36,866 nt of DNA, taken from Bacteroidales bacterium (GTDB taxonomy: Bacteria; Bacteroidota; Bacteroidia; Bacteroidales; UBA12077). Positions 4,767 through 27,182 of the stretch are shown here, in pieces. Position numbers and translations under genes: made by a program. The notes below the pieces were generated by a model. The model was given only the letters and a program-made list of their open reading frames with translations, made no database searches and had not been told where the DNA came from. Each line of letters begins with the position of its first letter. Positions within the stretch are counted from its first letter, which is position 1. The stretch covers positions 1 through 36,866 of the forward strand of contig JANQHR010000139.1 in the NCBI GenBank assembly GCA_028282585.1, in the 5' to 3' direction.

Positions 4767-5237
4767 ATGAAAAGTATAAAGCTATTAGCTGCAATTATAT
4801 TTTCTATAAGCACATTCATTACTTATGGACAAAATTGCTCCGATTATCATGTTGATAACTGCAGGTGGGCAGATGAATCATTTTTATATTGTCGACAATC
4901 CAAAAGCGCATTGTTTAAAACAGGAATGAGATCGGAATTCTCAATAACTGTATATGGTGGTGAAGAGTATTACGTTTCGGTAAAAGGTGATCGTAACCTT
5001 GGAAAAATAAGAATTAGGGTTAAAGAAGATGATGCTGAAAAAAAAGTCTTGTATAATAATGCACATTACGATTATGAAGATTATTTCTATTTTAAAAACG
5101 AAAATACTCGTAATTTAATAATAGAAGTCACTTCCGAAGCAATAAACAAGTTTAATAAATCAACCGAAAGATATTGTGTAGGAGTTCTTATTCAGTTTAG
5201 AAACTATAAAGACGATCCGACAAATACCGGATTTTAA
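4767..5237 (+). CDS. Hypothetical exported protein
   Basis: 156-aa ORF with signal peptide (…TYG/QNC), 12 nt after the previous gene. Confidence 0.7.
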   Translation: MKSIKLLAAIIFSISTFITYGQNCSDYHVDNCRWADESFLYCRQSKSALFKTGMRSEFSITVYGGEEYYVSVKGDRNLGKIRIRVKEDDAEKKVLYNNAHYDYEDYFYFKNENTRNLIIEVTSEAINKFNKSTERYCVGVLIQFRNYKDDPTNTGF

Positions 5238-16382: not shown

Positions 16383-16407
16383 AATGTTACGCTTATATTA
16401 AACAAGT

Positions 16408-16438
16408 TTTGTTTTTAAAAATAATGTAATTATACTTG
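16408..16438 (+). promoter_or_regulatory. Candidate promoter of the his leader and operon
   Basis: TTTG (16408-16411), 19 nt, TATACTTG (16431-16438); close to the Bacteroidota -33/-7 consensus, 18 nt before the leader 1 ATG. Confidence 0.6.
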
Positions 16439-16456
16439 CACTATCAACATAGAAAA

Positions 16457-16534
16457 ATGAGTTTACAAAATTTACATACAATTCTTCATCACCATCATCA
16501 TGCTGGTGCATATTACCTATGCAAATTTTTGTAA
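16457..16534 (+). CDS. his operon leader peptide 1 (MSLQNLHTILHHHHHAGAYYLCKFL, 25 aa)
   Basis: Hand-translated; 5 consecutive His codons plus one more; A-rich start; followed by a terminator; upstream of hisG. Confidence 0.88.
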   Translation: MSLQNLHTILHHHHHAGAYYLCKFL

Positions 16535-16563
16535 AATCCTAAAGATAAATTTAAAAAAATAAT

Positions 16564-16591
16564 GGGCTTGCAAAATTTGCAGGCCCTTTTT
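16564..16591 (+). terminator. his attenuator terminator 1
   Basis: GGGCTTGCAA-aat-TTGCAGGCCC-TTTTT; the 3' end of leader 1 (TGCAAATTTTTGTAA) is complementary to TTGCAAAATTTGCA in this hairpin (antiterminator). Confidence 0.85.
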
Positions 16592-16620
16592 CGTATAAAC
16601 AATTTAATAGTTAAAATAAA

Positions 16621-16698
16621 ATGAACTTAAAACAACATCATATTCATCATCATCATTCGAGTTTGAATCAAACCCGGCAGAAAGTACTATGGATATAA
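16621..16698 (+). CDS. his operon leader peptide 2 (MNLKQHHIHHHHSSLNQTRQKVLWI, 25 aa)
   Basis: Hand-translated; 6 His in 7 codons; A-rich start; followed by a second terminator. Confidence 0.88.
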   Translation: MNLKQHHIHHHHSSLNQTRQKVLWI

Positions 16699-16721
16699 AT
16701 TTAAGTTCACTATAAAAAATT

Positions 16722-16753
16722 AAAAGGCCTACAGTTCTCTGCAGGCCTTTTTT
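16722..16753 (+). terminator. his attenuator terminator 2
   Basis: AAAAGGCCT-a-CAG-ttct-CTG-c-AGGCC-TTTTTT, ending 22 nt before the hisG ATG. Confidence 0.85.
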
Positions 16754-16775
16754 ATTTAAAAACACATAATCAATT

Positions 16776-17633
16776 ATGGAAAAACTAAAAATTGCAGTAC
16801 AAAAGTCAGGAAGGTTAAGTGAAAAATCGCTTCAGCTTTTAAAAGAATGCAGTATTAAATTAACGAATGGTAATCGAAAGCTAATTTCAGTATCATCCAA
16901 TTTTCCCATAGAAATACTCTTTTTACGAGATGATGATATTCCGCAATCCATCTATGATAGTGTAGCAGATATCGGAATTGTTGGAGAAAATGAATTCGTT
17001 GAAAAAAATTATCCTCTTAAAATATATAAACGATTAGGATTTGCCAAATGTCGTTTATCTATTGCCATTCCGAAAACAGAAAACTTCGATTCACTTGAGT
17101 ATTTTCAAAATAAGAAAATTGCTACCTCTTATCCATTCATCCTAAAGTCTTTTCTTAAAAAAAATAACATCAATGCGGAAATACACCAAATCAGTGGTTC
17201 GGTTGAAATATCTCCTGGTATTGGGCTGGCCGATGGTATTTTTGATATAGTAAGTTCTGGAAGTACATTGATCAGTAATGGATTAAAAGAAGTAGAAAAA
17301 GTTATGGATTCTGAGGCTGTTTTTATAGGTAACCCTAATATAAAGACTACCAAAAAAGAGATTCTGGAACAGCTTTTATTCAGAATAAATTCGGTTCAGC
17401 AAGCAAATTCCAATAAATATATTCTACTAAATGTTCCCAAAGGTAATCTAGATGAGGTTATTCAAATTATTCCAGGAATGAGAAGTCCAACCATTATGCC
17501 ATTAATTGATGATGAATGGTGCTCATTACATTCGGTAGTTAATGAGCAGGAATTCTGGGAAGTTATTGATCAGCTTAAATCAGCTGGTGCAGAAGGTATC
17601 TTGGTAGCACCTATCGAAAAAATGATCTTGTAA
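16776..17633 (+). CDS. hisG: ATP phosphoribosyltransferase (long form)
   Basis: IAVQKSGRL, RDDDIP, GSVE and DIVSSGSTL motifs plus C-terminal regulatory domain. Confidence 0.97.
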   Translation: MEKLKIAVQKSGRLSEKSLQLLKECSIKLTNGNRKLISVSSNFPIEILFLRDDDIPQSIYDSVADIGIVGENEFVEKNYPLKIYKRLGFAKCRLSIAIPKTENFDSLEYFQNKKIATSYPFILKSFLKKNNINAEIHQISGSVEISPGIGLADGIFDIVSSGSTLISNGLKEVEKVMDSEAVFIGNPNIKTTKKEILEQLLFRINSVQQANSNKYILLNVPKGNLDEVIQIIPGMRSPTIMPLIDDEWCSLHSVVNEQEFWEVIDQLKSAGAEGILVAPIEKMIL

Positions 17634-17643
17634 AAATAGAAAA

Positions 17644-18933
17644 ATGAAAATAATAGAATATCCAAGCCAAATTAAATTACAAGAAATCCTGACGCGTCCG
17701 GTTTTCGATTCAGTTAAACTGGAGAAATCAGTTACGAAAATCATGTCTTTGGTTCAAAAGAAAGGAGATAAAGCGCTATTTGCCTTATCGAAAAAGTTTG
17801 ATAAGGCCAACATTCAGGAGCTAAAGCTATCTTCAGAACTTATAGAAAATTCGGAAAAGCTAATCGATAATAAATTAAAAAATGCCATAAAAACAGCTTC
17901 ACTGAATATTGCAAAGTTTCACAATTCACAAATCTACGAATCAGAAGTTGTGGAAACAATGAAGGGCATTAAATGTTGGCAAAAATCTGTACCAATTGAA
18001 AAAGTTGGCCTTTATATTCCCGGAGGCTTGGCACCTCTGTTTTCAACTGTTCTTATGCTAGCAGTTCCTGCTCAATTAGCAGGTTGCAAAGAAGTTATTT
18101 TATGTACTCCTCCAGGCAAAGATGGAATTGATCCAGCCATATTATATGCTGCTAAAATATCCGGTGTTAAAGATGTTTTTATAGTTGGCGGAGCACAAGC
18201 AATTGCAGCAATGGCATATGGAACTGAATCCATACCAAAAGTTGATAAGATATTTGGGCCTGGAAATCAGTTTGTAACTACTGCCAAACAAATTGTTGCT
18301 TCACAAGGAATTGCAATCGATATGCCTGCTGGTCCATCAGAAGTTATGATTTTAGCCAATGAAAATGCTAACCCAGATTTTATTGCAGCTGATTTACTCT
18401 CTCAAGCAGAACACGGATTTGATAGCCAGGTAATTTTAGTCACCACAGAAAGATCAATTATCAGCAAAACTTTAAAAAGTTTAAATGACCAGCTTAATGT
18501 ATTGCCCAGAAAGGAAATTGCTGAGAAATCGCTTGAGTCCGGAGCTATTATATTAGTCGACAATACAGAAAAAATGATCACTATAGCGAATGCTTACGCT
18601 CCGGAGCATTTGATTATTTCAACTTCTAATTATACCGAATTGATTGAAAAAGTATACAATGCCGGATCAGTATTTTTAGGAAATTTTACACCTGAAAGCC
18701 TTGGTGATTATGCATCAGGTACCAACCATACCCTACCAACCAATGGTTTTGCCAGAAGTTATAGCGGGCTGAATATGGATGCTTACTTCAAGAAAATTAC
18801 TTTTCAGGAAGCTACATCTGAAGGAATTGAGATTATCGGAAACCTTGTTGAAACCATGGCCGAAGCAGAACAGCTGCAAGCACACAAAAATGCTATTAGC
18901 ATTAGATTAAAAGCAATAAAAAATGAAAAATAG
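17644..18933 (+). CDS. hisD: Histidinol dehydrogenase
   Basis: GLYIPGG, DKIFGPGN, DMPAGPSE, LSQAEH, APEHL and GDYASGTNHTLPT motifs. Confidence 0.97.
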   Translation: MKIIEYPSQIKLQEILTRPVFDSVKLEKSVTKIMSLVQKKGDKALFALSKKFDKANIQELKLSSELIENSEKLIDNKLKNAIKTASLNIAKFHNSQIYESEVVETMKGIKCWQKSVPIEKVGLYIPGGLAPLFSTVLMLAVPAQLAGCKEVILCTPPGKDGIDPAILYAAKISGVKDVFIVGGAQAIAAMAYGTESIPKVDKIFGPGNQFVTTAKQIVASQGIAIDMPAGPSEVMILANENANPDFIAADLLSQAEHGFDSQVILVTTERSIISKTLKSLNDQLNVLPRKEIAEKSLESGAIILVDNTEKMITIANAYAPEHLIISTSNYTELIEKVYNAGSVFLGNFTPESLGDYASGTNHTLPTNGFARSYSGLNMDAYFKKITFQEATSEGIEIIGNLVETMAEAEQLQAHKNAISIRLKAIKNEK

Positions 18934-19972
18934 TATAAACATAAACAAACTGATTCGAAAAAACATTTTGGAACTAACCCCATATAATTCAGCTCGTGGG
19001 GAGTTTTACGAATCCGATTTCATTTTTTTGGATGCTAATGAAAATCCCTTTCCTTTAGGATATAATAGGTATCCGGATCCTTTACAAAAGGAACTTAAGG
19101 AGGCTATTTCAATAGAAAAAGAAATTCCCGTTCAGAATATTTTTTTAGGAAATGGAAGTGATGAAATCATTGATTTATTGTACCGTGCTTTTTGCTACCC
19201 TGGAAAAGACTCAGTTATCATTAATACTCCTACCTATGGAATGTATGAATTATGCGCCAGGGTCAACGATATACAAGTGATTAAAATAAACTTAGATGAT
19301 GATTTTCAAATTGACTTAGATTCTATTCTAAAAGCTAATTTACAAGCTAAAATGATATTTATCTGTTCACCCAATAATCCGACAGGAAATATTATTCAGA
19401 AAGATTTGATTCTTGAATTATTGTCAAAATACAAAGGAATTGTAATAATTGATGAAGCATATATTGATTTTGCAAACAATGAAGGATTTGCATCTGAAAT
19501 CAATAAATATACTAACCTGATAGTTTTACAAACATTTTCAAAGGCTCGTGCTATGGCCGGTGTTCGTTTAGGTATGGCATTTATGAACTCCGAAATTGTT
19601 GGAATACTTAATAAAATAAAACATCCATATAATATCAGCTACCTCAATCAAAAAGCTATTTTAAAATCTTTAAAAAATAAATTAAATGAAGTTGGAATAA
19701 AAGCCATTTTAAAACAAAAAGAATGGTTAACAGAACAACTAGGTAATTTAAAAATTATGCAAAAAATATGGCCATCAGATGCTAATTTTCTATTGGTAAA
19801 ATTTTTTGATCATGATAAGATATTTAAATATCTAAGAAAAGAAGGAATTATAGTTCGTGATCGATCCAAAGAACCTGGTTGCGAAGGATGTTTAAGAATA
19901 ACAATAGGAAAATCATCAGATAATCAATTATTAATAAACTGTTTAAAAAAATATCAAAAAATAAATCTTTAA
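18923..19972 (+). CDS. hisC: Histidinol-phosphate aminotransferase
   Basis: LDANENP, NRYPDP, GNGSDE, CSPNNPTGN, DEAY and TFSKA motifs. Confidence 0.96.
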   Translation: MKNSININKLIRKNILELTPYNSARGEFYESDFIFLDANENPFPLGYNRYPDPLQKELKEAISIEKEIPVQNIFLGNGSDEIIDLLYRAFCYPGKDSVIINTPTYGMYELCARVNDIQVIKINLDDDFQIDLDSILKANLQAKMIFICSPNNPTGNIIQKDLILELLSKYKGIVIIDEAYIDFANNEGFASEINKYTNLIVLQTFSKARAMAGVRLGMAFMNSEIVGILNKIKHPYNISYLNQKAILKSLKNKLNEVGIKAILKQKEWLTEQLGNLKIMQKIWPSDANFLLVKFFDHDKIFKYLRKEGIIVRDRSKEPGCEGCLRITIGKSSDNQLLINCLKKYQKINL

Positions 19973-19976
19973 AGAT

Positions 19977-21083
19977 ATGAATAAGATACTATTTATTGAT
20001 CGGGATGGGACTTTAATTAAAGAACCTGTAGATGAACAAGTTGACTCATTAGAAAAATTGGAATTCATTCCTGGCATTTTTCGGGTACTTTACTTGTTAA
20101 CCAATCAGTTTGATTATGAATTAGTCATAGTTTCGAACCAGGATGGTTTGGGAACCGGCACCTATCCTACCGAAGCTTTCGAAAAGGTCCAGGATAAATT
20201 GTTAAAAACTTTAGCAGGTGAAGGAATTAAGTTCAAAGAAATATTGATTGACAAATCATTTCCTAAAGATAAGATTTCAACCAGGAAACCTGGTATTGGT
20301 ATGGTTAAAAAATACCTGAATGAAACGCTTGATTACGAAAAATCTTTTGTTATTGGTGATCGGTTAACTGATTTGCAATTAGCACAAAATATGAACCTCA
20401 AAGGAGTTTTACTTGGAAATAAACACGAAATAAATATTGCCAATAATAAAACTCTTTTCAATTGCAATAGTTGGGATGAAGTTCTTGAAGTCATAAGAAA
20501 AAATTACAGGTCATCTTTTGTAAAAAGAGAAACCAGTGAAACTAAAGTTGAAATTAAGTTATCTCTTGATGGTAGAGGAAAAAATCATATTGAAACTGGT
20601 TTAAAATTCTTCGACCATATGTTAGAGCAGTTATCAAAACACTCCGGAATCGATTTAGCCATAAAGGTAAATGGTGATCTTGATGTTGATGAACACCATT
20701 CCATAGAAGATACTGCAATAGCTTTAGGTGAAGCTTTTACAAAAGCCTTAAACAATAAGAAAGGTATTGAACGTTATGGATTCGTCTTACCGATGGATGA
20801 TTGTTTAGCGCAAGTTGCTATTGATTTCGGTGGTAGGCCCTGGCTGGTCTGGGATGCATCCTTTAAAAGGGAAAAGATTGGTGATATGCCAACAGAGATG
20901 TTTTATCATTTCTTTAAATCCTTTTCTGATTCCGCTCGTTGTAACATAAACATAAAAGCAGAAGGTAACAATGAACATCATAAAATTGAAAGCATTTTTA
21001 AAGCGTTTGCTAAAGCAATGAAAATGAGTATAAATCAAGATAAATTATCCATAAATGTTCCTTCAACAAAAGGAGTATTATAA
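19977..21083 (+). CDS. hisB: Bifunctional histidinol-phosphatase / imidazoleglycerol-phosphate dehydratase
   Basis: N-terminal HAD motif DRDGTL; C-terminal FFDHML, DEHHSIED and NEHHKIE. Confidence 0.96.
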   Translation: MNKILFIDRDGTLIKEPVDEQVDSLEKLEFIPGIFRVLYLLTNQFDYELVIVSNQDGLGTGTYPTEAFEKVQDKLLKTLAGEGIKFKEILIDKSFPKDKISTRKPGIGMVKKYLNETLDYEKSFVIGDRLTDLQLAQNMNLKGVLLGNKHEINIANNKTLFNCNSWDEVLEVIRKNYRSSFVKRETSETKVEIKLSLDGRGKNHIETGLKFFDHMLEQLSKHSGIDLAIKVNGDLDVDEHHSIEDTAIALGEAFTKALNNKKGIERYGFVLPMDDCLAQVAIDFGGRPWLVWDASFKREKIGDMPTEMFYHFFKSFSDSARCNINIKAEGNNEHHKIESIFKAFAKAMKMSINQDKLSINVPSTKGVL

Positions 21084-21095
21084 TTCATAATTCAA

Positions 21096-21677
21096 ATGAA
21101 AGTTATAATCATAAAATATAATGCAGGCAACACTCAAAGTGTCGCGTTTGCTTTAAAGCGTTTAGGAGTTAAACCAATAATAACAAATGATTCAGAACAA
21201 ATTCTAAAAGCTGATAAAGTTATTTTTCCAGGTGTAGGAGAAGCTTCAACTACCATGAATTACCTTATCGTAAACAACTTGAACAAAGTTATTTTAGAGC
21301 TAAAACAGCCTTTTTTAGGAATTTGTTTAGGAATGCAATTGATGTGTAAATTCTCTTTGGAAGGTAAAACCAAATGCTTAGGAATCTTTGATGATTTAGT
21401 TGAGAAATTTCCCCCTAAAAATAAAATTCCACATATTGGCTGGAATAGTTTAACCAACTTAAAAGGGCCATTATTTAAAGATATTTCGGCTAACGAATAT
21501 GTTTATTTTGTTCACAGCTATTATGTACGATTAAACAAAAATTCTATTGCCGAAACAAATTACATCAATCCTTTTGCAGCAGCAATAAGAAAAGATAATT
21601 TTTTTGCCGTTCAGTTCCACCCCGAAAGAAGCGGAAAAACAGGCGAAATCATTTTAAAAAACTTTATAGAATTATGA
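21096..21677 (+). CDS. hisH: Imidazole glycerol phosphate synthase, glutaminase subunit
   Basis: FPGVG, GICLGMQ, YFVHSY and QFHPE motifs. Confidence 0.96.
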   Translation: MKVIIIKYNAGNTQSVAFALKRLGVKPIITNDSEQILKADKVIFPGVGEASTTMNYLIVNNLNKVILELKQPFLGICLGMQLMCKFSLEGKTKCLGIFDDLVEKFPPKNKIPHIGWNSLTNLKGPLFKDISANEYVYFVHSYYVRLNKNSIAETNYINPFAAAIRKDNFFAVQFHPERSGKTGEIILKNFIEL

Positions 21678-22396
21678 TAGAAATAATACCAGCAATCGAT
21701 ATAATTGATGGTCAATGTGTAAGATTATCACAAGGACTTTACAATAAAAAAAGAGTGTACTCCAATCAACCAACGTTAATTGCCAAAGCTTTTGAAAATC
21801 AGGGATACAAGCGTCTACATTTGGTTGATCTGGATGGAGCCAAATCAGGGAAACCCGAAAATTTAAAAGTGCTTGAAAAAATTTGTTCTAATACCAACTT
21901 AATTGTGGATTATAGTGGAGGTATACGCAATAAGGAACAAATTGAAAACGCATTAAGAGCAGGTGCTAAATACATTGCAATAGGCAGCCTGGCAATTAAT
22001 AACTCAAGTTCTTTTATAAAGTTTATTGAAAAATTTGGAGCACAATTATTTATTGTTGCATCAGATGTTTTAAATGAACAGGTCTATATTAACGGATGGC
22101 AGGAAAAAACAGATATAAAAATCTATGATTTAATATCACGGTATATCGAACTTGGGATTCAAAAGTTTATGTGTACCGATATTTCTAAAGATGGCATGTT
22201 AGCAGGTGTAAATATTGATTTTTACAAATCTTTAAAAGACCAGTTCAAAAATAAATATATTATTGCCAGCGGAGGTGTTAGTTCCAAAAAAGATATCTAT
22301 GAACTCGAAAAGGCAGGTATTGATGCTATTATTGTAGGCAAAGCTTTTTATGAAGATATTTTGCCAGTAGAAAACTTAACTTTAAAACAATGCTAG
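21674..22396 (+). CDS. hisA: ProFAR isomerase
   Basis: IIPAIDI, LHLVDLDGA, TDISKDGML and IASGGV motifs. Confidence 0.96.
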   Translation: MIEIIPAIDIIDGQCVRLSQGLYNKKRVYSNQPTLIAKAFENQGYKRLHLVDLDGAKSGKPENLKVLEKICSNTNLIVDYSGGIRNKEQIENALRAGAKYIAIGSLAINNSSSFIKFIEKFGAQLFIVASDVLNEQVYINGWQEKTDIKIYDLISRYIELGIQKFMCTDISKDGMLAGVNIDFYKSLKDQFKNKYIIASGGVSSKKDIYELEKAGIDAIIVGKAFYEDILPVENLTLKQC

Positions 22397-23145
22397 CAAA
22401 AAGAATAATACCTTGTTTGGATATAAAAGATGGCCAGACTGTAAAAGGAATCAAGTTTGAACAGATCAAAGTAGTAGGCGATCCTGTTGAGTTGGGTAAA
22501 TATTACTGCGAAAATGGCGCTGATGAATTGGTATTTCTGGACATCACAGCAACGCATGAGAAACGTAAAGCTTGGATTGATTTGGTAAAGCGAATAGCCA
22601 GAAAAATAAATATTCCATTTACAGTTGGAGGAGGTATTTCCAATATTGAAGATGCCGAAAAGATCTTAAACGCTGGAGCGGATAAAATATCTGTAAATTC
22701 AGCGGCAATCAATAATTCAAAATTGATTTCGGATATTGCTAAGAAGTTTGGAAGCCAATTTGTTGTATTAGCTATTGATGCAAAACTTGAAAACAATCAA
22801 TGGAAGGTTTATAAAAACGGTGGTAGAATTCAAACTGAGTTAGAATTATTTAGTTGGGCAAAAAAAGCCGAGGAGTTAGGATGTGGTGAAATTCTTTTCA
22901 CTTCTATGAATCATGATGGTAGTAAAAATGGTTTTGCCCTAGAGCCTCTTAAGTTTCTTACAGAAAGTTTAAAAATCCCTTTAATTGCCTCTGGTGGTGC
23001 TGGTACCATAGGAGATTTCGAAGATGTATTTAAGTTCTCTAATGTTGAAGCTGCAATAGCTGCAAGTGTATTTCACTCTAAAGAAATTGAAATAAAAAAT
23101 TTAAAAAAGGAATTGTCTAGAAATAGCATTCCAATAAGACTCTAA
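22390..23145 (+). CDS. hisF: Imidazole glycerol phosphate synthase, cyclase subunit
   Basis: KRIIPCLD, GADELVFLDITA, PFTVGGG and IASGGAG motifs. Confidence 0.97.
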   Translation: MLAKRIIPCLDIKDGQTVKGIKFEQIKVVGDPVELGKYYCENGADELVFLDITATHEKRKAWIDLVKRIARKINIPFTVGGGISNIEDAEKILNAGADKISVNSAAINNSKLISDIAKKFGSQFVVLAIDAKLENNQWKVYKNGGRIQTELELFSWAKKAEELGCGEILFTSMNHDGSKNGFALEPLKFLTESLKIPLIASGGAGTIGDFEDVFKFSNVEAAIAASVFHSKEIEIKNLKKELSRNSIPIRL

Positions 23146-23156
23146 AACAATTGATT

Positions 23157-23747
23157 ATGAATTTAGATTTTGCAAAACTAAATGGATTTATTCCAGTTGT
23201 AATTCAAGATGTTAACACTAGGGAGGTTTTAATGCTTGGATTTATGAATGAGGAAGCTTATCAAAAAACAGCAAAAGAAAAACTGGTTACGTTTTACAGC
23301 CGTTCACGCAAAAAATTATGGACAAAAGGAGAAACCAGTGGAAACTTTTTAAAAGTAAATAAAATAATATCGGATTGTGATAGGGATTCTCTTTTAATTC
23401 TGGCTGAACCGACAGGGCCCGTTTGTCATGAGGGAAATAAAGCTTGTTTCAATCTTCAAGATCAAATCTTTGATTTGAACTATTTACAGGAAGTTATTGA
23501 ACAACGTAAAAAAGAAATGCCAAAAGATTCCTATACTACCAGGCTTTTTGAAAAAGGAATCAATAAAATAGCTCAGAAAGTTGGTGAAGAAGTGGTTGAA
23601 TTGATCATAGAAGCAAAAGATAACAATAACGATAATTATTTTTTAAATGAGGCTGCTGATTTGATTTATCATCTTTTAGTTTTACTTTCTGTTAAAAAAT
23701 TTAAAATAAAAGATGTAATCCGACTGTTGGAATCAAGACATAGATAA
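23157..23747 (+). CDS. hisIE: Bifunctional phosphoribosyl-AMP cyclohydrolase / phosphoribosyl-ATP diphosphatase
   Basis: LWTKGETSGN, DCDRD, CHEG…C, KVGEE and EAADLIYH motifs; ATG 23157 (TTG 23151 possible). Confidence 0.95.
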   Translation: MNLDFAKLNGFIPVVIQDVNTREVLMLGFMNEEAYQKTAKEKLVTFYSRSRKKLWTKGETSGNFLKVNKIISDCDRDSLLILAEPTGPVCHEGNKACFNLQDQIFDLNYLQEVIEQRKKEMPKDSYTTRLFEKGINKIAQKVGEEVVELIIEAKDNNNDNYFLNEAADLIYHLLVLLSVKKFKIKDVIRLLESRHR

Positions 23748-23764
23748 ATTAACACTAAATTAGA

Positions 23765-23794
23765 TTTACTTTTTAAAAAGTATTTATATATTTG
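23765..23794 (+). promoter_or_regulatory. Candidate promoter of the aromatic operon leader
   Basis: Perfect -7 element TATATTTG (23787-23794) 16 nt before the leader ATG; weak -33 (TTTA); spacer carries the palindrome TACTTTTTAAAAAGTA. Confidence 0.6.
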
Positions 23795-23810
23795 TCAATA
23801 ACAAACAAAG

Positions 23811-23861
23811 ATGAAAAATAACGCAACTACATATTACTATTACTATTTATTCTTGGAATAA
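23811..23861 (+). CDS. Tyr-rich leader peptide 1 (MKNNATTYYYYYLFLE, 16 aa)
   Basis: Hand-translated; 5 consecutive Tyr codons and one Phe; followed by alternative pairing segments and a terminator. Confidence 0.88.
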   Translation: MKNNATTYYYYYLFLE

Positions 23862-23894
23862 AGCAGGGGAGTAATATTGTTGTATAAAATACTT

Positions 23895-23923
23895 AAAGGT
23901 CCTGCTTAAACAGGACCTTTTTT
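23895..23923 (+). terminator. Aromatic operon attenuator terminator 1
   Basis: AAAGGTCCTG-cttaaa-CAGGACC-TTTTTT; AAGCAGG at the leader stop pairs with CCTGCTT of the 5' arm and loop (antiterminator). Confidence 0.88.
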
Positions 23924-23935
23924 ATTGAAATAAGT

Positions 23936-23995
23936 ATGATCAGGTTTACTTCACATTATTATTACTTCTATTACAGATACAAGTTGTATCCCTGA
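23936..23995 (+). CDS. Tyr/Phe-rich leader peptide 2 (MIRFTSHYYYFYYRYKLYP, 19 aa)
   Basis: Hand-translated; 7 Tyr and 2 Phe in 19 codons; starts 12 nt after terminator 1. Confidence 0.88.
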   Translation: MIRFTSHYYYFYYRYKLYP

Positions 23996-24031
23996 AAAGC
24001 TATGTCCATAAATTAAAATCATCAAATAATC

Positions 24032-24066
24032 AAAAAGCGTCTCAGGGAATCCTAAGGCGCTTTTTT
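24032..24066 (+). terminator. Aromatic operon attenuator terminator 2
   Basis: AAAAAGCGTCT-c-AGG-gaat-CCT-a-AGGCGC-TTTTTT; TCCCTGA…GCT spanning the leader 2 stop pairs with AGC…TCAGGGA (antiterminator). Confidence 0.85.
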
Positions 24067-24086
24067 AATTTTTAAAAACTTAAACA

Positions 24087-25259
24087 ATGAAACCAGCAAA
24101 ACGAATCCAAAACATCCAAGAGTACTACTTCTCCAAAAAGTTAACGGAAATAAGAAAAATGCAACAGCAAGGAATTGATGTAATCAATCTGGGAATAGGA
24201 AGCCCAGATCTTCCTCCACACCCGGATGTAATTTATGAATTAAACAAAAGCAGTCAATCTACTGATAGCAACATGTACCAATCGTATCGAGGAATTGATG
24301 AATTAAGAACTGCTATTGGCAACTGGTATCAAAAAATTTACCACGTTTACCTGGATACAAATACAGAAGTATTACCTCTAATGGGATCAAAAGAGGGAAT
24401 TATGCATATCTCTATGGCCTTTTGTGACCCAGGTGACCAAGTGCTTCTGCCTAATCCAGGCTATCCCGCCTACACGCTTGTTTCTAAACTATTAAATCTT
24501 GATATCCAATATTATAATCTTAACGAGCAAAACAATTGGTTACCTAGTCTTAATGAGTTAGAATCAATTAGTAACGATCGATGTAAAATGATATGGATAA
24601 ACTATCCGCATATGCCTACAGGTAAAGTTGCCGATGCAGGTACACTCAGGGAGCTTGTTATGTGGGCAAAATACAGAGATATTCTCGTTATAAACGATAA
24701 TCCTTATAGTTTAATATTAAATAAAAACCCTTTAAGTATTCTTTCAAATCTAAAAGATTATAAGCATGTTCTTGAATTGAATTCTTTGAGCAAATCTTAC
24801 AATATGGCCGGATGGCGAATTGGTATGGTAGGTGGTTCAAAAGAGAATATTAATCATATCTTAAAAATTAAAAGCAATTTTGATTCTGGTATGTATAAAG
24901 CAATTCAGATGGCAGCTGCTAAAGCTCTTAATTTAGGAAGTGATTGGATATTTGAATTAAATAATGAATATGAAAAAAGAAGAGAAATAATTTGGTATAT
25001 ACTGGACACTTTAAACTGTATTTATCAAAAGGAAACCAGTGGATTATTTGTATGGGCAAAAATTCCAGGAACTTTTAATAATTCATTTGAATTCTCTGAT
25101 TACTTACTTCATACACTTTGTTTATTTGCCACTCCAGGAAGTATCTTCGGAAATAATGGTAATCAATATATTCGATTTTCACTTTGTGCCAATCAAAAAA
25201 CGCTCCTGAAAGCTTTAAACCGAGTTAAAACTTTTAAAGAACAAACCATATGCGAATAA
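24087..25259 (+). CDS. Class I/II PLP-dependent aminotransferase (probable aromatic/prephenate aminotransferase by context)
   Basis: NLGIGSPD, GSKEG, NYPHMPTG, DNPY and SLSKSYNMAGWRIG (PLP Lys) motifs. Confidence 0.88.
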   Translation: MKPAKRIQNIQEYYFSKKLTEIRKMQQQGIDVINLGIGSPDLPPHPDVIYELNKSSQSTDSNMYQSYRGIDELRTAIGNWYQKIYHVYLDTNTEVLPLMGSKEGIMHISMAFCDPGDQVLLPNPGYPAYTLVSKLLNLDIQYYNLNEQNNWLPSLNELESISNDRCKMIWINYPHMPTGKVADAGTLRELVMWAKYRDILVINDNPYSLILNKNPLSILSNLKDYKHVLELNSLSKSYNMAGWRIGMVGGSKENINHILKIKSNFDSGMYKAIQMAAAKALNLGSDWIFELNNEYEKRREIIWYILDTLNCIYQKETSGLFVWAKIPGTFNNSFEFSDYLLHTLCLFATPGSIFGNNGNQYIRFSLCANQKTLLKALNRVKTFKEQTICE

Positions 25260-26086
25260 CTATAGTGGGTCTAGGTTTAATTGGTGGTTCCATGGCCATT
25301 GATCTTCGAAAAAGAGGTTTTGCATCTCATATTATTGGAGTTGATTCTAATAAACTTCATGCAAAAACGGCACTTAATATTGGTTTAATTGATCAAGTTA
25401 GTAATCTTGAAGATGCTATTTCTGAAACTGAATTAATTATCCTTGCAATTCCTGCGAATGAAACCATCCGGTTGTTACCAAAAGTGCTTGATAAAGTCAA
25501 AAACCAAATCGTAACAGATGTATGTTCCATCAAGGCAAATGTCTGTGAGCGAATAAAATACCATTCCAATCGTTTAAATTTCGTTGCATCGCATCCCATG
25601 GCTGGTACAGAAAACTCTGGGCCGTGGTCTGCAGAATCTGGATTATACGATGGGAAAGCAGTAATCTTTTGTGATGCTGAAGATAGCAATCCGCAAGCGC
25701 TAAATGTTGTGACGAAAATGTATGACTACTTAAACATGCGGCCCATTTATATGAACGCATATAATCATGATGTACATGTAGCTTATGTTTCACACATTTC
25801 ACATATCAGTTCATTTGCATTGGCTTTAACGGTTCTGGATAAGGAAAAAAATGAAAAAAATATTTTTGATCTTGCCAGTGGAGGATTTGATTCAACTGTG
25901 CGATTAGCAAAAAGTTCAGCCGAGATGTGGTCAACTATTTTTGAAAACAACTCGGAGAATGTAATCTCTGTTTTAGATACATATATTGAAAAATTAAAGG
26001 AATTTAAATTGGCTATTCAAAAAAACGAAAATGGCCAAGTATCTGATTTAATTAATAAAGCAAACCGAATTAAAAAGATATTGTAA
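25250..26086 (+). CDS. tyrA: Prephenate dehydrogenase
   Basis: GLGLIGGS, DVCSIK, HPMAGTE, HD…AYVSHISH and RLAKSSAEMW motifs. Confidence 0.93.
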   Translation: MRITIVGLGLIGGSMAIDLRKRGFASHIIGVDSNKLHAKTALNIGLIDQVSNLEDAISETELIILAIPANETIRLLPKVLDKVKNQIVTDVCSIKANVCERIKYHSNRLNFVASHPMAGTENSGPWSAESGLYDGKAVIFCDAEDSNPQALNVVTKMYDYLNMRPIYMNAYNHDVHVAYVSHISHISSFALALTVLDKEKNEKNIFDLASGGFDSTVRLAKSSAEMWSTIFENNSENVISVLDTYIEKLKEFKLAIQKNENGQVSDLINKANRIKKIL

Positions 26087-26087
26087 A

Positions 26088-27182
26088 ATGAAAACAAATT
26101 TAAATTTAAACTTAAAAAATATATTTGACTGGAGTATCATTCAAGAGGATAAACCAATTATCATTTCTGGCCCTTGCAGCGCAGAAACCGAAGAACAAAC
26201 TATTCAAACAGCAATTGCACTTAGAAAATTCGGAATTAAAATATTTCGAGCCGGAATCTGGAAACCACGCACTCGCCCTAACTCATTCGAAGGTGTTGGA
26301 AGTATAGCTTTAGAATGGTTAAAAACAGTTAAAAGTGAAACCGGAATGTTTCTTGCTACAGAAGTGGCTAATGTCAAACATATTTATGAATCGTTAAAAG
26401 CAGGTATTGATATTCTTTGGATAGGTGCTCGAACTACAGCTAACCCTTTTGCAATTCAGGAGATTGCTGAAGCATTAAAAGGCATAGACATTCCCATTTT
26501 AATTAAAAATCCTGTAAATCCGGATGTTAACTTATGGATTGGTGCAATAGAAAGGTTTTATAAAACTGGTATAACAAAAATTGGTGCAATTCATAGAGGA
26601 TTTTCGACTTACGAAAAAAGCATTTATAGAAACATCCCACAGTGGCAAATTCCGGTTGAACTGAAAACAAGAATACCGGAAATTCCGCTTTTATGCGATC
26701 CTAGCCATATATCCGGAAATAGGCAGTTATTAAAAGACATATCTCAAAAGGCTATTGATCTCAATTTTGATGGGCTTATGATAGAAACTCATCCTTCTCC
26801 TGATAAAGCCTGGAGCGATGCAAAGCAGCAAATAACTCCCAATTCACTTAAGCATATGATTGATAACTTAGTTATCAGAGAAGAACTTCCTAAAGGTATT
26901 TCATTAGATACTATCGAAGATCTTAGATATAGAATTGATCAATGTGATGATGAATTATTAAATATTCTTGAGAAAAGAATGAATCTAGTTCATTCAATTG
27001 GAATCTATAAAAAGGAAAATAAAATGACTATATTACAGCCGGGACGCTGGGAAAATGTAATTGGTAAGAGTATTGAAAGAGGATTAAAAAAGAATCTAAA
27101 CAAAGATTTTATATCCAATATTTTTAAGTCTATTCATCAGGAATCTATAAATAAACAAAATAAGATTATGAACAATAGGTAA
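26088..27182 (+). CDS. Bifunctional DAHP synthase (type I-beta) / chorismate mutase (C-terminal AroQ)
   Basis: GPCSAE, WKPRTRP.SFEG, WIGART and DPSH motifs; C-terminal LRYRIDQCD…KRM…K…Q..RW. Confidence 0.93.
   Translation: MKTNLNLNLKNIFDWSIIQEDKPIIISGPCSAETEEQTIQTAIALRKFGIKIFRAGIWKPRTRPNSFEGVGSIALEWLKTVKSETGMFLATEVANVKHIYESLKAGIDILWIGARTTANPFAIQEIAEALKGIDIPILIKNPVNPDVNLWIGAIERFYKTGITKIGAIHRGFSTYEKSIYRNIPQWQIPVELKTRIPEIPLLCDPSHISGNRQLLKDISQKAIDLNFDGLMIETHPSPDKAWSDAKQQITPNSLKHMIDNLVIREELPKGISLDTIEDLRYRIDQCDDELLNILEKRMNLVHSIGIYKKENKMTILQPGRWENVIGKSIERGLKKNLNKDFISNIFKSIHQESINKQNKIMNNR

Follow-up and report, generated by a model that had tools for sequence, protein, structure and literature searches.

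Two candidate leader-peptide attenuators in series precede the histidine and tyrosine operons of a Bacteroidales bacterium and its relatives

Textbooks describe leader-peptide attenuation as a mechanism with a single sensor for each operon, and the classical enterobacterial attenuators have one unit per operon. Repeated sensors are familiar from other leader RNAs: tandem thiamine pyrophosphate riboswitches and tandem T-boxes exist, and the pyr operon of Bacillus subtilis carries three PyrR-dependent attenuators for the same signal. A comparative study of attenuators was reportedly made by Vitreschak and colleagues in 2004. Here we analyse a window of 36,866 nucleotides (nt), the whole of contig JANQHR010000139.1 (our contig C100) of the Bacteroidales assembly GCA_028282585.1, a genome of 4.9 Mb with 32% G+C that is 98% complete. 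The window contains a histidine (his) and a tyrosine (tyr) biosynthesis operon, each preceded by a pair of short open reading frames (ORFs) with a run of codons for the end product, and downstream of each ORF stand a GC-rich hairpin and a T run. We consider it likely that control of each operon lies with two complete classical leader-peptide attenuators, placed in series on one transcript from a single promoter.

The units share with enterobacterial hisL and pheL the cognate-codon ORF, the 1:2, 2:3 and 3:4 hairpins and an intrinsic terminator immediately ahead of the first biosynthetic gene. They differ from them in standing two in series, in belonging to another phylum, in scoring below the Rfam gathering thresholds and in the Tyr specificity of the second operon. 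The B. subtilis pyr attenuators are protein-mediated and spread between genes, whereas the units described here are stacked before the first gene. Tandem riboswitches and T-boxes come closer in layout, with two full same-signal sensor-terminator modules in series on one 5′ leader, an arrangement believed to make the response sharper. There the sensing is done by RNA aptamers or tRNA-binding leaders, whereas here it would be done by ORFs that are translated. Published examples of same-ligand tandems include a triple c-di-GMP riboswitch (excerpts of PMC4759541) and the cases in a review of modular RNA arrangements (excerpts of PMC5367253).

The only natural tandem leader-ORF attenuator that we found in the literature is that of Salmonella mgtCBR, where, according to excerpts of the original report, each of two leader ORFs independently governs transcription elongation (PMC3641672, Lee and Groisman 2012). 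In the same excerpts the signals read by the ORFs, mgtM and mgtP, differ (ATP and proline), their effects are additive and neither has an intrinsic terminator; a two-attenuator leader is described by the authors as unusual (PMC3641672). Unlike the mgtCBR leader so described, the present leaders have the same codon run in both ORFs of a pair, rather than ORFs for different signals, and each ORF has its own intrinsic terminator. A synthetic precedent is the tandem pT181 antisense attenuator, whose effects, in excerpts of the report, multiply and give a more sensitive response, two copies being modelled as the squared function of a single unit (10.1101/018358). The series arrangement is alike, although the pT181 construct is engineered and, as described there, senses an antisense RNA rather than the position of a ribosome. 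Within Bacteroidetes, leader-peptide attenuation has been noted from transcriptome maps (excerpts of PMC7366714 and PMC9723704), and among the matching passages of a broad attenuator survey tandem terminators are mentioned only for the rimP leader (PMC2965389). Full-text searches, which do not cover subscription journals, gave us no description of same-signal tandem leader-peptide attenuators. What is new is the same-signal series; the underlying leader-peptide switch is well known.

The his operon, hisG-hisD-hisC-hisB-hisH-hisA-hisF-hisIE (16776-23747; all features of the window given here lie on the plus strand), has NCBIfam equivalogs above cut-off for all eight genes and is preceded by a gap of 393 nt. 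A promoter-like -7 box, TATACTTG (16431-16438), is the sole match to TAnn(N)TTG in 16383-16775 and is conserved in the alignment of congeners as TATAATTG or TATTATTG. The first leader ORF, read from the sequence with scripts as were the other three, begins 19 nt further on (MSLQNLHTILHHHHHAGAYYLCKFL, 16457-16534) and has 25 codons, of which six are His codons, five of them consecutive. It is kept in 19 of 20 congeners, with four to seven His codons in the 14 that were tabulated. Terminator 1 (16564-16591) consists of a 10-base-pair stem (16564-16586) with six GC pairs followed by TTTTT, at -15.3 kcal/mol. Leader ORF 2 (MNLKQHHIHHHHSSLNQTRQKVLWI, 16621-16698) again has 25 codons with six His codons (HHIHHHH), and six to eight His codons in congeners. 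Terminator 2 (16723-16756, -14.5 kcal/mol) has a stem of 12 pairs with one mismatch (16723-16750) and a T run, and its stem ends 26 nt before hisG. Both terminators are conserved in congeners. The second leader is two codons longer here (16687-16698) than the UGA stop position of 11 of 13 tabulated congeners, because their UGA stop codon reads UGG in the source genome; the antiterminator predicted for leader 2 of the relatives is weakened in the source genome.

The tyr operon starts with an aminotransferase gene (24087-25259, NCBIfam) and continues with prephenate dehydrogenase (tyrA, 25250-26086; 342 bits against a cut-off of 295) and a DAHP synthase/chorismate mutase fusion (26088-27182, NCBIfam). 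The 339-nt gap before it contains two Tyr-run ORFs, each again with a GC-rich hairpin and a T run after it. The promoter-like box TATATTTG (23787-23794), the only exact TAnnTTTG in 23748-24086, lies 40 nt past the hisIE stop codon, and the first leader follows 17 nt later; the box is an exact match to what we take to be the Bacteroidetes -7 consensus, TAnnTTTG. Tyr leader ORF 1 (MKNNATTYYYYYLFLE, 23811-23861) has 16 codons with five Tyr codons (YYYYY, then LFL), and its terminator (23895-23925, -14.5 kcal/mol) a 10-base-pair stem (23895-23920) with five GC pairs and a T run. Leader ORF 2 (MIRFTSHYYYFYYRYKLYP, 23936-23995) has 19 codons, seven for Tyr and two for Phe, and is followed by a stem of 13 pairs, six of them GC (24034-24063), and a T run (to 24069; -14.7 kcal/mol), with 24 nt from the stem end to the first gene at 24087. 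Because pheA is absent from the source genome, we regard this operon as Tyr-specific.

Each operon is therefore preceded, as far as the DNA itself can tell, by two complete sensor-plus-terminator modules with no promoter box between them. The initial annotation had proposed a two-stage attenuator at both operons, laid out as a promoter, two leader-terminator units and then the gene, and the four ORF-terminator units identified here bear this out: there is one box per region, the gene begins 24-26 nt after the last stem, and a box search of both leader regions found no exact TAnnTTTG between the units of either pair.

The four units also have the parts expected of classical ribosome-mediated attenuators, namely cognate-codon ORFs (6 His, 6 His, 5 Tyr, and 7 Tyr plus 2 Phe codons), intrinsic terminators of -14.5 to -15.3 kcal/mol and, by prediction, a competing antiterminator that overlaps the stop codon, clear for both tyr units and his unit 1 and weak for his unit 2. 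Of the four hairpins, a general terminator scan picks up three (on the plus or minus strand) and our script-based scan all four. In his unit 1 the predicted antiterminator (16527-16575) pairs 16527-16541, over the leader stop codon, with 16563-16575 in the 5′ arm of terminator 1. Its predicted energy is -5.9 to -10.8 kcal/mol when a ribosome occupies the His codons, and the same pairs are predicted in 15 of 15 aligned congeners. In Tyr unit 1 (23861-23907), AAGCAGGG, which begins at the last base of the stop codon, would pair with the 5′ arm of terminator 1, at a predicted -12.3 kcal/mol before the 3′ arm is synthesized. In Tyr unit 2 (23989-24048), UCCCUGA, which contains the stop codon, would pair with UCAGGGA in the 5′ arm of terminator 2 (-12.4 kcal/mol). 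In naked RNA the start of the leader ORF is predicted to pair with its end in a long 1:2 hairpin, alongside the terminator. Alignments of 15 congeners likewise lead to predictions of the 1:2, 2:3 and 3:4 helices for both his units, and cells that do not pair are very few.

At gathering thresholds Rfam gave no match anywhere in the window. With E-values up to 10, His_leader (RF00514) scored 24.8 and 20.2 bits against a gathering threshold of 49, and Phe_leader (RF01859) 20.3 and 15.6 bits against 55. We regard these sub-threshold scores as noise-level and do not assign the units to either Rfam family.

Control counts over the whole genome indicate how rarely such units arise by chance. The genome contains 56,414 small ATG ORFs (8-45 codons). 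Four or more His codons within six occur in 36 of them, and only two of these also have a terminator within 110 nt; both lie before hisG. The corresponding Tyr run occurs in 50 ORFs, three of them with a terminator, of which two are those of the tyr leader region and the third falls within a gene of the opposite strand. Terminators are not doubled generally in this genome, because close same-strand pairs are rare: 901 sites form 11 pairs 40-220 nt apart, and two of the 11 are the his and tyr pairs. None of the remaining nine is a leader; they are tRNA genes, gene ends or repeats. A repeated element of about 70 nt is common to contigs C58 (about 5150-5230, plus strand) and C103 (about 4830-4920 of the reverse strand); it reads GCTAGCGCGGA.TT..A.TCCGTGTTTT.CTT.GAAAAAGCAATAAAGGTA.TTGGCAC, adjoins terminator-like hairpins, and may be a repeated small RNA or the end of a mobile element.

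A leader scan of the source genome found none with a known target besides those of his, tyr and a stand-alone trpB. Candidates before ATP synthase subunit A, a histidine kinase, a peroxiredoxin, EF-G2 and unnamed genes were dismissed as chance. No leader was found in the thrC region, and the genome lacks trpE, with pabB only in its place, as well as leuA and pheA. The search for leuA was also negative in the 19 same-genus genomes covered (G000 and 18 congeners), and the genus looks like a partial amino-acid auxotroph that retains his, tyr and an indole-salvage trpB.

The initial annotation took the doubling for a lineage-level strategy, and in relatives it proves to be wider than proposed. Genera and families follow GTDB; the window belongs to genus g1 of family f1, which consists of uncultured Bacteroidales and whose other genera with data are g14 and g16, and the counts refer to genomes with a readable upstream region. 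Before his, two units are present in 19 of 20 g1, 2 of 2 g14 and 5 of 8 g16 genomes (26 of 30 in the family) and in 0 of 8 genomes from other families of the order; three further g16 matches without a locus were left out. The exception in g1 (G066) retains the proximal unit alone. For phe/tyr, taken as the region before pheA where that gene is present, two units are found in 12 of 13 g1 and 4 of 6 g16 genomes (family 16 of 19; other families 0 of 3). The thirteenth g1 genome has two terminators with a poor first leader, the two remaining g16 genomes have a single unit and none, and in g14 the upstream region runs into a contig end. The trp operon is doubled in kin though the source genome has no trpE: before trpE, two units were found in 8 of 8 g1, 1 of 1 g14 and 9 of 9 g16 genomes (family 18 of 18; other families 1 of 5), one further g1 locus cut by a contig end having been left out.

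Genomes from other families of the order mostly have a single unit. Of 66 more distant his loci in a wider collection (HisG identity of at most 68%), 55 have a single unit, no unit was detected in 11, and two units occur in none. In an outgroup genome from another family (G022, locus L163), the trp operon has two WWW leaders, each with a terminator, and his has one unit; because of this case the doubling can be said to recur sporadically outside the family. Within the family, the distal and the proximal his units of g1, g14 and g16 are alike unit for unit, so the doubling appears to predate the radiation of the family.

Both his units are well conserved. Mean pairwise identity across 14 congeners is 0.81 for the ORF of unit 1 and 0.84 from its stop codon to the terminator end, and 0.83 for both parts of unit 2, compared with 0.61 for the spacer between the units, 0.65 between terminator 2 and hisG, and 0.51 at third codon positions of hisG. 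Because these values lie well above those of the spacers and synonymous sites, both copies appear to be under selection, the opposite of a decaying second copy. The outcome that the initial annotation had named as speaking against it, single units with a decaying second copy in relatives, is accordingly the reverse of what the genomes contain, where both copies are kept and conserved. The spacer itself varies between 26 and 96 nt in 14 congeners. In four loci (L047, L104, L054 and L103) it holds an insertion of 50-70 nt with inverted ends (TTGATTTTTTGG ... CAAAACAAAAAATCAA) that looks like a miniature mobile element.

The initial annotation also described the units as unrelated in sequence. 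This holds between the operons, but within his unit 1 resembles unit 2: their local alignment has a z-score of 7.5, a score reached by 0 of 300 shuffles. Non-cognate pairs are also raised (his 2 with tyr 1, z 4.8; his 2 with tyr 2, z 3.6), and the two tyr units do not align significantly (z 1.6). The z-scores are inflated because all units have codon repeats, A/T-rich linkers and terminators in common. An origin of the his pair by tandem duplication is likely on this comparison, and we do not claim paralogy as proven. The likeness is what one would predict of a neutral tandem duplication that simply persists, its second copy adding nothing or serving as a spare, and the genomes with a single unit would fit this too. 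A spare copy would be expected to decay, yet both copies are conserved above the spacer and synonymous-site level across three genera, and three or four operons of one lineage retain the doubling, which is rare outside it. We therefore regard neutral persistence as highly improbable. Because the doubling has been kept across the whole family, it is probably a selected way to tighten control and not an accident.

The reading that we favour, two attenuators in series, would work as follows. Each short ORF carries a codon run for the end product of the operon, and when the cognate charged tRNA is scarce a translating ribosome would stall on the run. The segment around the stop codon would then be free to base-pair with the terminator's 5′ arm, and RNA polymerase would continue. 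When the tRNA is plentiful, the ribosome would reach the stop codon and mask that segment, and the terminator would form. With two units, the polymerase would have to clear two independent checks of the same charged tRNA; because it must pass both switches, read-through would be the product of two probabilities. We infer translation of the leaders, the stalling, this multiplicative effect and the selective reason from the arrangement. Compared with a single unit, the pair would be expected to have less basal expression and a wider dynamic range, and to respond more steeply to His or to Tyr/Phe. The doubling would be older than the radiation of this Bacteroidales family and have been kept since by selection at his, phe/tyr and trp.

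The surroundings of the two operons raise another explanation, in which the distal unit serves mainly as an operon boundary against read-through from upstream, from a TauE-like gene into his and from hisIE into tyr, and the sensing proper falls to the proximal unit. As the initial annotation had stated, there is no GC-rich terminator between hisIE, which ends at 23747, and the Tyr leader: the terminator scan found no terminator-like site there, and the stretch folds no better than shuffles (z 0.17). With neither such a site nor a stable structure after hisIE, the sequence would permit his transcripts to run into the Tyr attenuators. No terminator is listed either between the end of the TauE-like gene (16382) and his leader 1. 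Because no earlier terminator was found, the first attenuator terminator would be the first stop signal for upstream transcripts, and the sole single-unit congener in g1 keeps the proximal his unit, as a boundary role for the distal one would predict. A plain terminator, on the other hand, would need neither the four to seven His codons that the distal units retain in 14 of 14 congeners nor the antiterminator pairing, and trp operons, as well as phe operons with other upstream neighbours, are also doubled. We thus consider it unlikely that the distal unit is mainly a boundary. A distal unit could act as a conditional boundary and take part in serial sensing as well.

A further explanation, to which we give a similarly low probability, is that the two units are tuned differently, to other thresholds or other signals (Tyr as against Phe, or tRNA charging as against general translation speed), and so shape or widen the response. 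The tandem leader ORFs of Salmonella mgtCBR do read different signals, according to the excerpts cited above (PMC3641672). In our set the Tyr/Phe leaders mix the two codon types in differing proportions, as such tuning would predict, and a second ORF before the stand-alone trpB is conserved as a peptide and lacks a canonical terminator, which means that not every second stage copies the first. Against this, the runs in both his leaders are of His codons only and are similar in length, with six His codons each here and four to seven and six to eight in congeners, and both Tyr leaders of the source genome are dominated by Tyr. The codon mixture of the phe/tyr leaders varies among relatives: the source genome and G007 both lack a prephenate dehydratase gene and have a Tyr-heavy second leader with one or two Phe codons (window 23811-23995; loci L042 and L038-L041), and congeners with pheA have four or five Phe codons in it. 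Comparison of these sequences suggests that the sensor was re-coded following the loss of pheA, probably in a single event.

The stand-alone trpB lies on another contig of the source genome (C16, locus L002, minus strand, about 2698-2990), where a Trp leader (MKQILNTNWWRQMIYHKTGI) with a terminator is followed by the second ORF (MYNYQYIFWWRRIQFLWRI), with no canonical terminator between this ORF and trpB. The second ORF is kept in seven of eight congeners with the same trpB type, with the core NYQYIxWWR(R/K)IQFLWR. Because many codon differences in the core are synonymous, selection appears to act on the peptide, which by analogy may be a TnaC-like arrest peptide. Loss of Rho was considered and rejected, since rho is present in the genome.

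Several points weigh against two classical attenuators in series at each operon. The antiterminator of his unit 2 is weak in the source genome, at only -2.7 kcal/mol. Covariation support for the predicted his helices is thin, because nearly all pairs are invariant or vary on one side. The units and terminators were called by a purpose-written script, and seven under-called loci were corrected by eye from the sequence. The compared genomes are kin and not independent, so that the counts amount to about one ancient doubling per operon and a few losses. One his unit suffices in 4 of 30 genomes of the family and in 8 of 8 outgroup genomes; doubling is thus not required.

The genes that flank the operons encode a solute symporter, the TauE-like protein, a peptidase, an isochorismatase-like protein, an FRG-domain protein and CysQ. 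No transcription-factor family is represented among them, in agreement with the initial annotation, which had seen no transcription factor gene next to either operon. A search of the genome gave no TrpR-family gene; TyrR-like regulators were not searched for. The attenuators may stand in for a repressor. A more far-reaching reading, which we offer tentatively and hold to be less probable than serial control of these two operons, is that serial same-signal attenuation is the general rule of the family, at his, phe/tyr, trpE and trpB, where it would replace a missing repressor layer and give near-digital control. The second stage at trpB would then have diversified into a terminatorless, conserved nascent peptide, possibly TnaC-like in acting through ribosome arrest and Rho.

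With this, a whole family stacks two putative sensors for the same amino acid at its aromatic and histidine operons, and the arrangement would be the ribosome-based counterpart of tandem riboswitches. The family offers a natural experiment on what such stacking brings, be it less leak, a steeper response or shielding from transcription that enters from upstream. The modules are compact, at about 150 nt each, and their pairing suggests a route by which bacteria without Trp, Tyr or His repressors may achieve a wide regulatory range by RNA alone.

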